A stretch of DNA of 64,000 bases from Escherichia coli. GTDB taxonomy: Bacteria > Pseudomonadota > Gammaproteobacteria > Enterobacterales > Enterobacteriaceae. The stretch lies in assembly GCF_024298765.1 (NCBI RefSeq), contig NZ_CP101210.1. The stretch is one strand, 5' to 3'. Position numbers: made by a program. Numbering within the stretch: position 1 is the first letter of the stretch; each line of letters opens with the position of its first letter. Below, in pieces: positions 51,301 through 57,300 of this stretch.

Positions 51301-54300
51301 CAGTACTATGAATTCCTGCGCCTCGGTCGTGAAGGCTATACCAAAGTACAGAACGCTTCCTACCAGGTTGCCGCTTATCTGGCGGATGAAATCGCCAAAC
51401 TGGGGCCGTATGAGTTCATCTGTACCGGTCGCCCGGACGAAGGCATCCCGGCGGTTTGCTTCAAACTGAAAGATGGTGAAGATCCAGGATACACCCTCTA
51501 CGACCTCTCTGAACGTCTGCGTCTGCGCGGCTGGCAGGTTCCGGCCTTCACTCTCGGCGGTGAAGCCACTGACATCGTGGTGATGCGCATTATGTGTCGT
51601 CGCGGCTTCGAAATGGACTTTGCTGAACTGTTGCTGGAAGACTACAAAGCCTCCCTGAAATATCTCAGCGACCACCCGAAACTGCAGGGTATTGCCCAGC
51701 AGAACAGCTTTAAACATACCTGATAACATAACGTTGTAAAAACCGAATGCCCAACCTTTAAAAAACAGCTGGGCATTCGGTTGCTTATTAATCGCAATAA
51801 TATATTGGCTGTCTATTCATCGTGTTGATAAGATATATGTTATATGAATGTTTATTAAATGTAGCGATTATATTTAATGTAACGAAAAGGGATTATTTGC
51901 TTACTATTAATTTCCCTGCGTTCTTAAACACGTTTTTGTATTATAAATCCAGTCATCCTGCCCGTAGAACATCACACATTATCATCCTGTTCTCCCGCTT
52001 CGTTTAAATTTATTTATCAATCAATTTGACTTAAGAGGGCGGCGTGCTACATTAATAAACAGTAATATGTTTATGTAATATTAAGTCAACTATGCAACCA
52101 CTACATGGTAATTGTCTAATTGCGTACGCAAGACATAAATATATTCTCACCATGGTTAATGGTGAATATCGCTATTTTAATGGCGGTGATCTGGTTTTTG
52201 CGGATGCAAGCCAAATTCAAGTGGATAAGTGTGTTGAGAATTTCGTATTAGTTTCAAGAGACACGCTTTCATTATTTCTCCCGATGCTCAAGGAGGAGGC
52301 ATTAAAACTTCATGCACATAAAAAAGTTCCTTCATTACTCGTTCATCACTGTACCAGAGATATTCCTGTTTTTCAGGAAGTTGCGCAACTGTCGCAGAAT
52401 AAGAATCTTCGCTATGCAGAAATGCTACGTAAAAGGGCATTAATCTTTGCGTTGTTATCTGTTTTTCTTGAGGATACGCAGTTTATACCGTTACTTCTGA
52501 ACGTGTTGCAACCGAATATGCGAACACGAGTTTGTACGGTCATCAATAATAATATCGCCCATGAGTGGACATTAGCCCGAATCGCTAGCGAATTGTTGAT
52601 GAGTCCAAGCCTGTTAAAGAAAAAATTGCGCGAAGAAGGTACGTCATATTCACAGTTGCTTACTGAGTGTAGGATGCAGCGTGCTTTACAACTTATTGTT
52701 ATATATGGGGTTTCAATTAAGCGAGTTGCAGTATCCTGTGGATATCACAGCGTGTCGTATTTCATTTACGTTTTTCGAAATTATTATGGGATGACGCCCA
52801 CAGAGTATCAGGAGCGATCGGCGCAGGAATTACCGAACTGTGGCCCGGCGGCAAGTATGGCTGCGCAAGGGAATTTTTACGGCACTGACCGTTCTGCGGA
52901 AGGAATAAGATTATAGAGTTTTACTCAGACATAAAAAAAACCCGGCATAGGGGACCGGGAAGAGGATAGTCTGCCGTCTCCAGACTAATAAACCGTTATA
53001 ACACTCCCTGTTGGCACGGGAAACTTTGTGCTCTCAGTAAGTTAAATATAACTTTTACTGGAAATAAGATCAGCCATTTTTTTATAAACATAAGCTATAC
53101 GCTGTGCGAAAATATATTCGTGTTGCATTTACTTATTATCAATTAACTGTTATGCAAAACTACTTTGTGGATAAATTTTGGTCCTACCAAATCTGGCAGT
53201 TTTTTCGCTAAGAAACAGTCAGGCATCATTTCATTAGTATACTGAAATTGAAATAATCGCAGCAATGAAATATAAGGGATAGTCATGACTCATGTCTGCT
53301 CGGTGATCCTCGTTCGTCGTTCATTCGATATTCATCATGAACAGCAAAAAATATCGTTGCATAACGAGAGTATCCTGTTACTGGATAAAAATTTGGCAGA
53401 CGATTTTGCGTTTTGTTCACCGGATACACGACGACTGGATATCGATGAGCTGACAGTTTGCCATTACTTACAAAATATTCGTCAGATACCACGCAATTTA
53501 GGGTTACATAGCAAAGACCGTCTGTTAATTAACCAGTCACCCCCCATGCCGCTGGTGACGGCGATTTTTGATAGTTTCAATGACTCCGGGGTAAATTCGC
53601 CGATATTGAGCAAAATGCTCTATCTTTCCTGTTTATCGATGTTTTCTCATAAGAAAGAACTGATCCCCTTACTTTTCAATAGTATCAGTACTGTTTCAGG
53701 AAAAGTTGAACGCCTTATTAGCTTTGATATCGCCAAACGTTGGTATCTGCGCGATATTGCGGAAAGAATGTATACCAGCGAGAGTCTCATCAAAAAAAAG
53801 TTGCAGGATGAAAATACCTGTTTCAGTAAAATATTACTCGCCTCCAGGATGTCGATGGCCAGACGATTACTCGAGTTACGTCAAATTCCTCTGCATACTA
53901 TTGCGGAAAAATGTGGCTATAGCAGTACGTCGTACTTTATAAACACATTTCGACAATATTATGGTGTAACGCCACATCAGTTTGCGCAACATTCGCCAGG
54001 TACCTTTTCCTGACATATTTTGCATTTGAATATTGGTCAGGATCTCACACCTGCTTCATGTGAAACTCTTCCCTGATGATTTCTGCCGGGCTACCGGCTA
54101 GTTCTCTTTCGCAGTTTGCCAGGCGGTATAGGTATTTTCAGGAGGAAAAGACTCGGCATGTTTGGGATTATTAAGCTGACAATTCATACGATTACGGGAA
54201 TGTGGGTCAGTATTGTGTTGTTTAAATTGATGACGAATGGCTGGAGTGGTTTCTACTTTCAGTGCTGTGTACTAAGCCTGGTATTCCTGACGGTTAGCTG

Positions 54301-57300
54301 GTTGTTGAGTGGTGAATGGTTAGCAGGAAAGAGTAAGGCTGAACCCTCACGTTCAACCTTACTCTCATTTACACGTTACGCTTTTTTAAAGCGGGCAAAG
54401 AGATGTTCCACTACAACGAAAAAGACCGGAACGAAGTAAATTGCCAGCACTGTTGCGGCAAACATCCCGCCCATCACGCCGGTACCTACCGCGTTTTGCG
54501 CGCCAGAACCGGCACCATGACTGATAACCAGCGGCAGCACGCCGAGAATAAAGGCCAGAGAGGTCATCAGGATTGGGCGTAAACGCATCCGCGCCGCTTC
54601 GATGATTGCCTCTATCGGCGTTTTCCCTTCTTTCTGCATCATCTCAACGGCAAATTCGACAATCAGGATGGCGTTTTTGGCGGAAAGCCCGATGGTGGTC
54701 AGCAAACCAACCTGGAAGTAGACGTCATTACTTAAGCCGCGTAGATCGGTGGCCATTAATGCGCCAACGACGCCTAACGGTACAACCAACATCACCGAGA
54801 ACGGAATTGACCAGCTCTCATAAAGTGCGGCGAGGGCGAGGAACACCACGACCAGTGAAATGGCATACAGCGCGGGAGCCTGATTTGAGGATAACGCTTC
54901 CTGATACGACAGTCCGGTCCATGAGTAGCCGACGCCTGCCGGAAGTTTAGCGACCAGGTCTGCCATAAATTTCATGGCGTCACCGGTACTTTTCCCGGCC
55001 GCCGCTTCACCTAAAATCTCCATTGACGGGATGCCGTTGTAGCGTTCCAGTCGCGGTGAACCATAGGTCCATTCGGTAGACGAATAGGCAGAAAGCGGTG
55101 CCATCGTGCCAGAGGCGTTGCGTACATACCATTGGTTGATGTTATCCGGCAACATACGGAACGGCGTGCCTGCCTGGACATACACTTTTTTCACCCGCCC
55201 CTGGTTGAGGAAGTCGTTCACGTAGCTGCTGCCGAAGGCGGTGGAAATTGTCTGGTTGATATCAGACAGCGCCACCCCCATAGCCTCGGCTTTCGCAGCG
55301 TTGACGTTCACTTTGAACATCGGCGTATCTTCCAGGCCGTTCGGGCGTACCCCGATGACCTGATTCGGTGATTGCGCTGCCAGTGATAACAGCTCGTTTC
55401 GCGCCTGGGTCAGTTTTTCGTGCCCCAGATTGCCGTTGTCCAGCAGTTCCATATCAAAACCTGACGCGGTACCCAGTTCAGCCACCGCGGGTAAGTTGAA
55501 CGGGAAGACGACGGCTTTATTGATACTGCTTAACGCAATCATTGCCCGCTGAATGATCGCGGTAACCGAGTTTTCCTCACCGACACGTTCAGACCACGGC
55601 TTGAGACTGATAAACGCCAGGCCGTTGTTTTGCCCCTGGCCGCTGAAGCCAAAGCCGCCAACGGTAAACACCGACTGAACATTATCTTTCTCTTTAGTCA
55701 GATAATAATCCGTCACCTGTTGCAGCACTTTCGTGGTGTTAACCATGGTGGCACCGGAAGGTAACTGCGCGGTGGTCATAAATACCCCCTGATCCTCTTC
55801 TGGTAAGAAAGAGGTCGGCGTACGCAGGAACAGCACCGCCATCCCGGCGCAAATCAGCAGGTAGACCACCATGTAGCGACCGGTACAACGCAACAGCGAG
55901 CGGGTGCTATCGGTATAGTGCTGAGTTGATTTTTCAAACAGCGTGTTGAAGCGTGCGAACAGGGCGTTAGGTTTGTGACCGCCTTCCGGCGCGGCTTTCA
56001 GAATGGTGGCGCACAGGGCAGGGGTCAGGCTCATTGCCACAAATACTGAAAGCAGCATGGAGGAGATCAGCGTGATGGAGAACTGGCGGTAGATCTCCCC
56101 GGTTGCACCGCTCATAAAGGCCATCGGCATAAACACTGCGGAAAGAACAACGGCAATCCCGACCAGCGCACGTTGGATCTGCCCCATCGATTTATGCGTC
56201 GCTTCCTTCGGCGGTAGCTTATCTTCCGCAATGACACGCTCGACGTTCTCCACCACCACGATGGCGTCATCCACCAGTAACCCTATCGCCAGCACCATCC
56301 CGAACATAGTTAACGTGTTGATGGTGAAACCGACCGCCGACAAGATCGCAAACGTCCCGAGAATAACCACCGGTACGGCAATCGTCGGGATGATTGTGGC
56401 GCGGAAATTCTGCAAAAACAGATACATGACCAGGAAGACGAGGATGATAGCCTCAACCAGCGTTTTGAAAACTTCCTGAATAGAAATTTTGATAAACGGT
56501 GTGGTGTCGTAAGGATAAACCGTCTTCAGGCTTGCAGGGAAATAAGCCGATAAACGGTTCAGTTCCTCTTTGACTGCCCGCGAGGTATCCAGGGCGTTTG
56601 CTCCGGCAGCCAGTTTGATGGCGATCCCGGCAGCAGGTTTGCCGTTATAGCGCGCCACGGTGGAATAATCTTCCGCCCCAAGTTCGACGCGGGCGACATC
56701 ACGCAGCAGCACTTGCGAGCCATCTTGCTGAACTTTCAACAGGATTTTGCCAAATTCTTCCGGCGTTTGCAGACGCGTCTGCACAATGATCGAGGCGTTC
56801 AGTTGCTGGTCTGCCGCCTGTGGCATGCCACCCAGTTGACCACCGGAAATCTGGTTGTTTTGCACCTTAATCTGGGAAATAACATCGGAAGGTACCAGGT
56901 TATATTTATTGAGTTTTTGCGGGTCCAGCCAGATACGCATGGCGTACTCGGAACCAAAGAGCTGTACGCTACCAACGCCCGCGGTACGGCTTAGCGGGTC
57001 TTTGATATTAGACGCTACATAGTCCGCGATATCGTACTGGTTGAGGCTGCCGTTATCAGAAATAAATGCCGCTACCATCAGGATATTACTGCTCGACTTA
57101 TCGACGCTAATCCCCTGCTGCTGCACCGCTTCAGGTAATGAAGGCATAGCGAGTTGCAGTTTATTTTGCACCTGAACCTGTGCGATATCAGGCGATGTCC
57201 CCGTCTCGAAGGTCAGAGTGATGGAGGCATTACCTGCCGCATCGCTGGTTGAAGACATGTACATCAGGCCATCAAGCCCATTCATATTTTGCTCAATCAC

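Follow-up and report, generated by a model that had tools for sequence, protein, structure and literature searches.

sORF15 in the acid fitness island of Escherichia: probably an acid-induced gene for a two-helix small inner-membrane protein confined to one genus

The spacer between gadW and mdtF of Escherichia coli contains an open reading frame that appears in no gene annotation, and the question raised by this locus is whether the frame is a gene or a product of chance. We analyzed it within a window of 64,000 nt (contig NZ_CP101210.1 of assembly GCF_024298765.1). An earlier note, made from the sequence alone, had read a 93-codon frame running from an ATG at 54158 to 54439, and both position and translation matched the ORF listing, in which the 93 codons extend from the start codon ATG (54158–54160) to the stop codon TAA (54437–54439). 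The frame and its upstream neighbor are as follows.

54158..54439, plus strand: coding sequence of sORF15, 93 aa plus stop, from the ORF list and the sequence; equal to the entry in Table S7 of PMC10746267
53285..54013, plus strand: gadW, located upstream in the same orientation; sORF15 sits in its 3' UTR and in its transcription unit (unit as given in PMC10746267)

The counterpart in K-12 (NC_000913.3, complement(3663464..3663745), between mdtF and gadW), which was derived independently from locus L001, differs from the ORF of the window at 3 nt and in one amino acid (C65R, in the tail). Coordinates, strand, DNA and protein given in Table S7 of PMC10746267 are identical to this K-12 ORF; the frame had already been published as sORF15 (Schumacher et al. 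2023), with no difference in identity. The statement in the earlier note that no annotated gene was known here holds as far as annotation is concerned, with none at the ORF in K-12 NC_000913.3 or in the 40 RefSeq E. coli records listed, but the ORF itself had been in the literature since 2023. It is not among the entries of the supplement of Stringer et al. 2021, and the main text of the 2025 PIRT-Seq paper mentions neither gadW nor mdtF nor sORF15. An in-frame TTG at 54116, which would give a 107-aa form, was rejected as a start since conservation in other lineages does not extend to the codons ahead of the ATG.

sORF15 was described as a Ribo-seq candidate in the gadW 3' UTR (Schumacher et al. 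2023, mSystems 8:e01037-23; PMC10746267). At pH 4.4 compared to pH 7.6, its Ribo-seq signal at the native locus showed a log2FC of +4.21 (padj 1e-38) and its RNA a log2FC of +4.03, and the protein was visible as a Western blot band when expressed from the arabinose-driven plasmid pBAD24-sORF15:3xFLAG rather than from the native locus (PMC10746267). Both experiments proposed in the earlier note, acid-stress ribosome profiling and a FLAG tag, had thus been published for exactly this ORF, the former with strong induction and the latter with a positive blot from the plasmid-borne copy (PMC10746267). In E. coli, a gap of 144 nt separates the gadW stop codon from the sORF15 ATG on the same strand. 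Scanning for promoters gave no sigma-70-like site in this gap on the plus strand, so that sORF15 most likely depends on read-through from gadW.

A translation signal in the gadW 3' UTR need not imply function, given that the neighboring Ribo-seq candidate sORF14 is not conserved. sORF15 could likewise be a chance ORF whose functionless peptide reflects pervasive translation noise at an abundant gadW mRNA, and its restriction to one genus, with no protein family, is in line with such an origin. Further, 29 "shadow" ATG-initiated ORFs in the window reach 93 codons or more, and with the composition of the spacer an ATG opens 93 sense codons by chance with a probability of about 0.005, which makes length alone weak evidence; it is the comparative data that put the ORF beyond chance. 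The first of these concern the ribosome-binding region.

54132..54150, plus strand: invariant 19-nt block GTATTTTCAGGAGGAAAAG, with the Shine-Dalgarno sequence AGGAGG at 54140–54145 (alignment of 9 Escherichia lineages)

This block and the ATG were unchanged in 9/9 aligned lineages, and in the same alignment the 122-nt spacer preceding the block showed 45 variable and 24 gap columns out of 125. The AGGAGG had been placed in the earlier note at 54143..54148 with a spacing of 9 nt, which required correction, as it lies 12 nt upstream of the ATG, a long spacing.

Downstream of the ATG, the ORF core had no gap columns in the nine lineages, compared with the 24 of the upstream spacer. Variable sites at codon positions 1/2/3 numbered 19/7/29 and substitutions 24/9/45. 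Nei-Gojobori dN/dS was 0.13 (L003), 0.19 (L004), 0.13 (L005) and 0.15 (L007), with dS of 0.23–0.80, in a sample in which five loci had been fetched through the ORF's own protein and which is therefore biased towards intact copies; L002–L005, retrieved through GadW, and K-12 are unbiased loci, and all of them are intact. These values were in the same range as those of the neighboring genes (0.09–0.10 for gadW and 0.07–0.22 for gadX), while the remaining frames gave 0.3–9, except for an antisense frame of low value that contains stops and shares the wobble position. On a tree assumed from divergence levels, synonymous events numbered 45 and non-synonymous events 33. Random placement of the same base changes would give 27.2 +/- 3.8 synonymous events, and none of 20000 permutations reached the observed synonymous count (P<5e-5). 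No event on the tree created a stop codon (P=0.03). Taken from these alignments, the amino-acid sequence of sORF15 is under purifying selection across Escherichia.

Short database "alleles" of 46, 54 and 76 aa were also considered as natural frameshifts and rejected: those traced lie on contigs in which mdtF and/or gadW is fragmented as well, a sign of error-rich assemblies. The commonest such variant, a 1-nt deletion in GGAAAG that was the only one present in clean contigs, was found in 0 of 5426 complete genomes.

E. fergusonii encodes a syntenic orthologue of 54 aa between its GadW orthologue (62% identity) and MdtF (92% identity), and adjacency to mdtF was conserved across the loci compared. 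There, the ORF begins with GTG 19 nt past the gadW-like stop, with no obvious Shine-Dalgarno sequence, and retains the frame. Differences from E. coli fell 23/11/40 on the three codon positions, with pS of 0.96 and pN of 0.34, whereas pS and pN were approximately equal in the other frames. Outside Escherichia, neither a profile search of 1.84 billion representatives nor searches of a 5.8-billion protein set yielded a homologue. Homologues of >80% identity in Vibrio, Klebsiella, Salmonella and Enterococcus have been claimed (PMC10746267), but this was not reproduced here, with matches only in Escherichia among billions of proteins. Pfam-A and NCBIfam scans assigned sORF15 to no family at E<=10; with a family confined to one genus, function cannot be transferred by homology.

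Reading-frame conservation and the relation of synonymous to non-synonymous changes in Escherichia, the remaining check named in the earlier note, therefore came out in favor of a coding sequence, with dN/dS of 0.13–0.19, a core free of frame-breaking indels and the E. fergusonii orthologue. The chance origin that the note had kept as an alternative is strongly disfavoured by the same sequence comparisons, to which the permutation result, the absence of stops from a core whose upstream spacer holds many indels, the invariant Shine-Dalgarno block and ATG, and the codon-position pattern in E. fergusonii can be added; we consider it very improbable.

What kind of protein the frame would encode was addressed by hydropathy, structure prediction and alignment. 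The two TM-like stretches mentioned in the earlier note were recovered as Kyte-Doolittle peaks (19-residue means of 1.68, centered on residue 13, and 1.81, centered on residue 43), and AlphaFold2 predicted helices at residues 2–26, 31–56 and 63–89 with moderate confidence (pLDDT 63.5). DeepTMHMM had also given two TM helices, and the product had been predicted to be an inner-membrane protein (PMC10746267). The resulting elements are listed below.

54161..54235, plus strand: predicted TM helix 1, residues ~2–26 (hydropathy, AlphaFold2 and DeepTMHMM, the last from PMC10746267)
54239..54268, plus strand: most conserved motif, GWSGFYFQCC, residues 28–37 (protein alignments)
54248..54325, plus strand: predicted TM helix 2, residues ~31–56 (hydropathy and AlphaFold2)
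54326..54436, plus strand: basic C-terminal tail, residues 57–93, with 11 K/R and 1 D/E; not in the E. fergusonii orthologue

Residues G28, W29, S30, G31, F32, F34, C36 and C37 are invariant, E. fergusonii included, and the motif GWSGF(Y/F)F(Q/H)CC lies where the periplasmic turn is predicted and helix 2 would begin. The positive-inside rule predicts an N-in/C-in topology.

A small, hydrophobic, unannotated peptide with an antisense transcript across the 3' end of its frame might also call to mind a type I toxin, which would damage or depolarize the membrane when expressed. However, 93 aa (54 in E. fergusonii) with two TM helices exceeds the typical length of such toxins, and no toxin family was matched in Pfam or NCBIfam. 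The ORF occurs in one copy, keeps its synteny and shares a transcript with a regulator gene, and Rfam offers no dedicated antitoxin sRNA: a scan of 52800–54600 at a permissive threshold returned GadY only, upstream of gadW, and left the spacer empty. Moreover, after 1 h of arabinose induction, the protein was detectable and toxicity was not reported (PMC10746267). A toxin of this type is, in our view, extremely unlikely.

The 3' part of the frame is shared with mdtF, as follows.

54329..54366, minus strand: intrinsic-terminator hairpin of mdtF, 16 bp, -27.3 kcal/mol, followed by UUUCCUGCU
54376..54439, both strands: antisense overlap of 64 nt between the 3' end of sORF15 (plus) and the 3' end of mdtF (minus)

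The minus-strand gene mdtF reaches its end at 54376, and the overlap with its convergent 3' end, put at roughly 60 nt in the earlier note, measured 64 nt. The sORF15 frame runs through the plus strand of the terminator hairpin, the stem of which carries a compensatory change from T-A to C-G in L005, such that the terminator, together with the strand antisense to the 3' end of mdtF, encodes the tail. Since mdtF and the sORF15 frame share their wobble positions, conservation of the tail is uninformative on selection of the tail itself. By comparison of the loci, the extension of the frame in E. coli and the cryptic clades by 38 codons into mdtF antisense is a lineage-specific read-through. The E. 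fergusonii ORF ends before the terminator, without overlapping mdtF; this overlap is therefore not a conserved feature, and the selected unit would be the two-TM hairpin of ~54 aa with GWSGF.F.CC.

The arrangement of the 3' end raises the alternative that the act of translation or the RNA, and not the peptide, is what matters. Ribosomes on sORF15 might shield the gadW 3' UTR from Rho or RNases, or the mRNAs of gadXW and gadE-mdtEF might be coupled by a transcript whose antisense reach into mdtF is at least 64 nt, for instance with RNase III cleaving the duplex. GadY acts on gadXW mRNA through RNase III cleavage of a duplex. The convergent 64-nt overlap and the shared hairpin fit this alternative, as do a tail whose sequence is set by the terminator and mdtF, and the acid induction of both the gadXW and the gadE-mdtEF operons (PMC10746267). 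Nevertheless, a purely cis function would leave the amino acids of the core free, yet the constraint on the core is strong, and the E. fergusonii ORF stops short of both the terminator and mdtF. As a full account of the locus, an RNA role is improbable, although it could coexist with a functional peptide.

Selection, the orthologue, the published acid induction and the predicted TM helices thus support the earlier suggestion that the acid fitness island encodes a small membrane protein here, and sORF15 is very likely a real protein-coding gene for an acid-induced, two-helix small inner-membrane protein with a selected hairpin of ~54 aa. Our reading is that sORF15 would be transcribed with gadW as part of the gadX-gadW unit, with strong induction at pH 4.4, and would use a conserved Shine-Dalgarno sequence and ATG of its own for translation; its product would be a two-helix inner-membrane hairpin of N-in/C-in topology with the invariant motif at the periplasmic turn, to which read-through in the E. 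coli lineage would add a basic cytoplasmic tail. Most characterized bacterial small membrane proteins bind and modulate a larger membrane protein. By likeness to these, sORF15 would probably bind and modulate such a protein under acid stress.

Within this explanation, candidates for the partner can be put forward by analogy. MdtF, or MdtEF-TolC, in the manner of AcrZ, is a possible though doubtful choice; a sensor kinase, for which sORF15 would be a SafA-like connector, is considered since SafA is likewise co-transcribed with an AraC-type acid regulator (YdeO), and would be distinctly unlikely, as would GadC; the remaining share falls to something else. A joint reading, in which sORF15 would be an acid-specific partner of a large membrane machine through the periplasm-facing GWSGF.F.CC while its antisense extension would couple the gadXW and gadE-mdtEF transcripts, is speculative and on balance unlikely. 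As regards the machine in this joint reading, MdtEF-TolC is the most attractive, with a SafA-like link to a sensor kinase as the alternative. If it were true, the Gad/acid-fitness network would gain a membrane component born within the genus Escherichia.

Translation and acid induction of sORF15 had already been published; added here are the purifying selection, the 54-aa orthologue in E. fergusonii and the tail as a lineage-specific read-through, as indicated by comparison of genomes. The acid fitness island is among the most studied stress loci of E. coli, and sORF15 is still missing from the RefSeq and K-12 annotation. With the evolutionary evidence, sORF15 is no longer only a Ribo-seq candidate but a gene with a selected amino-acid sequence, and it is a clear example of a young, genus-restricted gene. 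It also defines a minimal conserved unit, the hairpin of ~54 aa with GWSGF.F.CC, so that the tail can be truncated with mdtF left untouched. Should sORF15 modulate MdtEF or acid signalling, it would represent a new component of acid resistance and of drug efflux linked to acid or anaerobiosis.

Among known small membrane proteins, AcrZ, which serves the RND pump AcrB as a small accessory protein, offers one comparison. Both are small inner-membrane proteins expressed alongside an RND efflux system under stress, and sORF15 adjoins mdtF, which encodes an AcrB paralogue, and is acid-induced together with it. However, the two share no sequence similarity, sORF15 falls outside the AcrZ family (Pfam-A and NCBIfam, E<=10), AcrZ has one TM helix and sORF15 two, and sORF15 is convergent to mdtF and not co-transcribed with it. 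In addition, AcrZ co-purifies with MdtF (PMC11539335), and MdtF may therefore already have a small partner. HdeD and YhiD share with sORF15 the acid fitness island, acid or stationary-phase regulation and the inner membrane, as seen in the context of L017, but they are much larger multi-pass proteins of the Pfam families DUF308 and MgtC, neither of which sORF15 matches. SafA (B1500) is reportedly a small membrane protein whose gene shares an operon with that of YdeO, an AraC-family regulator of acid resistance, and whose expression is induced upon acid signalling. It has one TM helix, and its periplasmic C-terminus binds PhoQ. sORF15 is likewise a predicted small membrane protein co-transcribed with an AraC-family acid regulator, GadW, but it shows no sequence similarity to SafA and no Pfam match, and as a hairpin it would expose only a short turn to the periplasm.

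The acid fitness island of E. coli is present in the window in reversed orientation with respect to K-12, and the small ORF that lies between gadW and mdtF, two convergent genes of the island, has already been published as sORF15. The gadW–mdtF spacer that contains it spans 362 nt. The features considered here are the following:

52092–52916, plus strand, gadX
52928–53041, minus strand, GadY (Rfam match)
53285–54013, plus strand, gadW
54060–54101, plus strand, sORF14, Ribo-seq candidate of PMC10746267
54085–54098, plus strand, GC hairpin GCCGG-GCTA-CCGGC, then TAGTTCTCTTT, between gadW and sORF15
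54329–54366, minus strand, mdtF terminator hairpin (16 bp, −27.3 kcal/mol, z = −6.3)
54376–57489, minus strand, mdtF

Re-reading of the sequence returned the frame described in the earlier note, i.e., an ATG at 54158 opening 93 codons, with a TAA stop at 54437–54439. Over its final 64 nt it runs opposite to the mdtF 3' end, in line with the overlap of roughly 60 nt proposed before, and the two hydrophobic stretches were recovered, their Kyte-Doolittle maxima lying at residues 13 and 43. The AGGAGG Shine-Dalgarno motif upstream of the ATG was also found, but at 54140–54145, 3 bases upstream of the position first assigned, so that it is separated from the ATG by 12 nt rather than 9. AlphaFold2 predicted helices at residues 2–26, 31–56 and 63–89 with modest confidence (pLDDT 63.5) from the small alignment available. 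Length alone is no proof of a gene, since the window holds 29 ATG-initiated ORFs of at least 93 codons nested in longer ORFs. As noted earlier, no gene is annotated at this position, neither in K-12 nor in any of the 40 listed RefSeq E. coli records; the sORF15 DNA was found in 5414 of 5426 complete genomes. Searches yielded no Rfam family in the gadW–mdtF spacer and no Pfam or NCBIfam match for sORF15. Further, a promoter scan detected no plus-strand promoter-like site between gadW and sORF15, which fits co-transcription of the two.

Expression of sORF15 was reported by Schumacher et al. 2023 (mSystems 8:e01037-23, PMC10746267), who applied Ribo-seq and RNA-seq to E. coli K-12 at pH 7.6, 5.8 and 4.4 and listed 18 acid-induced candidate small ORFs. 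The K-12 coordinates that we derived independently coincide with those in Table S7 of that study (NC_000913.3:3663464-3663745, minus strand), and the sequence is identical. At pH 4.4 compared to pH 7.6, sORF15 showed a log2FC of +4.21 in Ribo-seq (padj 1e-38) and of +4.03 at the RNA level. In the same study, DeepTMHMM predicted two TM helices and a possible third one at the C-terminus, a Western blot band was obtained from pBAD24-sORF15:3xFLAG, and GadC or MdtF was suggested as a possible associate. No follow-up paper on sORF15 was found in the later literature; Stringer et al. 2021 do not list it in their supplement, and the locus goes unmentioned in the main text of the PIRT-Seq 2025 paper. 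The present analysis adds an evolutionary validation of sORF15, the definition of its conserved core and motif, and a reinterpretation of its tail.

Selection was analyzed in an alignment of Escherichia loci, comprising an unbiased set retrieved by GadW search (L002–L005) and extra loci reached via the database relatives of sORF15 itself (L007/L008 of E. marmotae, L009/L010 and L011). The stretch from the gadW stop to 54131 was the most variable part of the alignment (of its 125 columns, 45 vary and 24 contain gaps), while the 19-nt block bearing the Shine-Dalgarno motif (54132–54150) and the ATG were invariant. The 168-nt core was gapless in every aligned lineage, and its variable sites were distributed 19/7/29 over codon positions 1/2/3. 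Pairwise Nei-Gojobori dN/dS values ranged from 0.13 to 0.19 (dS 0.23–0.80), in line with those of gadW (0.09–0.10) and gadX (0.07–0.22) at the same loci. The five alternative frames gave dN/dS values of 0.3–9, except for the wobble-sharing antisense frame, which has stop codons. On an assumed tree, 45 synonymous and 33 non-synonymous events were counted; random placement of identical base changes gave an expectation of 27.2 ± 3.8 synonymous events, with none of 20000 permutations reaching 45, and no stop codon was created by substitution (P=0.03). By these comparisons, substitutions have accumulated as in a coding sequence, with purifying selection shown on the sORF15 hairpin. This selection and the published acid-induced translation support the first interpretation of the earlier note, a small membrane protein of the acid-fitness island.

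When 1.84 billion representative proteins were searched with a profile, only copies of sORF15 and one divergent sequence (P0050, E=1.3e-7) were retrieved, the latter being the 54-aa orthologue of E. fergusonii ATCC 35469. Its locus is syntenic, flanked by an orthologue of GadW at 62% identity and by MdtF at 92% identity; gadE-mdtE, hdeD, hdeAB and yhiD lie farther along. The ORF starts with GTG, 19 nt past the gadW-like stop, and ends just ahead of a GC-rich hairpin, without overlapping mdtF. Identity to the E. coli core was 42%, and differences by codon position were 23/11/40 (pS 0.96, pN 0.34), a contrast not seen in other frames. Residues invariant throughout the genus include K6, T13, V17, V20, L21, L24, L41 and L44, as well as the block G28-W-S-G-F32 followed by F34, C36 and C37. 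The conserved product is a two-helix hairpin, which we take as the functional unit because the E. fergusonii orthologue defines it. By the positive-inside rule (K6 near the N-terminus; a basic tail or 'NKN' at the C-terminus), both ends would be cytoplasmic, and therefore the GWSG turn and the Cys pair would face the periplasmic side. An exclusive role in cis, in which translation itself or the antisense overlap with mdtF matters, could be a feature added in E. coli; however, it leaves the amino-acid constraint unexplained and is not conserved in E. fergusonii.

In this E. fergusonii locus (4391–7981 of L017), the GadW orthologue lacks an adjoining gadX-gadA, a divergent AraC-type gene and a histidine-acid-phosphatase gene being found upstream instead; thus, the linkage of gadW, the small ORF and mdtF outlasts that of gadX/gadA.

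The DNA encoding the tail (residues 57–93) runs through the mdtF terminator hairpin and then through the last mdtF codons. In L005, one stem pair has changed from T-A to C-G in a compensatory manner, which points to selection on RNA structure, and, as the wobble positions of mdtF and sORF15 coincide, selection on MdtF automatically preserves the tail. Because E. fergusonii lacks it, we read the tail as a lineage-specific read-through, tolerated since the topology accommodates a basic end in the cytoplasm. In Escherichia sp. E2593 (L011), an extra T in the T6 run at 54382–54387, just within the mdtF 3' end, alters both the MdtF C-terminus (lengthened, 1043 aa) and the sORF15 tail (96 aa).

Versions of 46, 54 and 76 aa are present in protein databases. 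Those traced were rejected as true alleles, since in nearly all of their contigs mdtF and/or gadW were fragmented too, indicating error-rich assemblies. The sole variant from otherwise clean contigs was a 1-nt deletion in GGAAAG, which occurred in no complete genome. E. coli O121 strain 201805972 (NZ_CP119441.1) is a natural sORF15 knockout, in which an IS66-family element (tnpA/B/C) splits the ORF at about window position 54198; an IS1 lies beyond this element, and gadW was not found adjacent. Homologues with >80% identity have been claimed in Vibrio, Klebsiella, Salmonella and Enterococcus (PMC10746267, Fig. S9C). Our protein database searches did not reproduce any outside Escherichia: named matches were all Escherichia but for one mislabelled fragment, as were all traced loci, and the records behind the published claim are probably mislabelled or contaminated. 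One fragment carries the source label 'HxlR family regulator', which shows how unreliable such labels can be.

The gadW 3' UTR also contains sORF14, a 13-aa GTG-initiated Ribo-seq candidate (PMC10746267). It is not conserved, with GTG changed to GTA in three lineages, the stop lost in most, an internal stop in one and indels shifting the frame, and the whole segment is missing from E. fergusonii; from this pattern, a functional peptide is unlikely. The GCCGG-GCTA-CCGGC hairpin, kept in some lineages, is weaker in L004/L010, and L003 has lost its T-tract; it may act on gadW mRNA as a partial terminator or as a stability element. Amid this fast-evolving UTR, the 11-nt GGTCAGGATCT (54035–54045, plus strand) is invariant in all lineages.

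As for mechanism, acid induces transcription and translation of sORF15, as published (PMC10746267). The product would work at the inner membrane through binding to a larger protein. There are precedents for such a role: AcrZ binds the RND permease AcrB, whose paralogue MdtF is the conserved neighbour of sORF15, and the small membrane connector SafA shares a transcript with YdeO, an AraC-type acid regulator, much as sORF15 does with GadW. However, AcrZ has itself been co-purified with MdtF (PMC11539335). Both precedents fit the context of sORF15 by analogy; however, it has no sequence similarity to either, and the parallels are therefore proposals that it works like AcrZ or SafA rather than claims of family membership.
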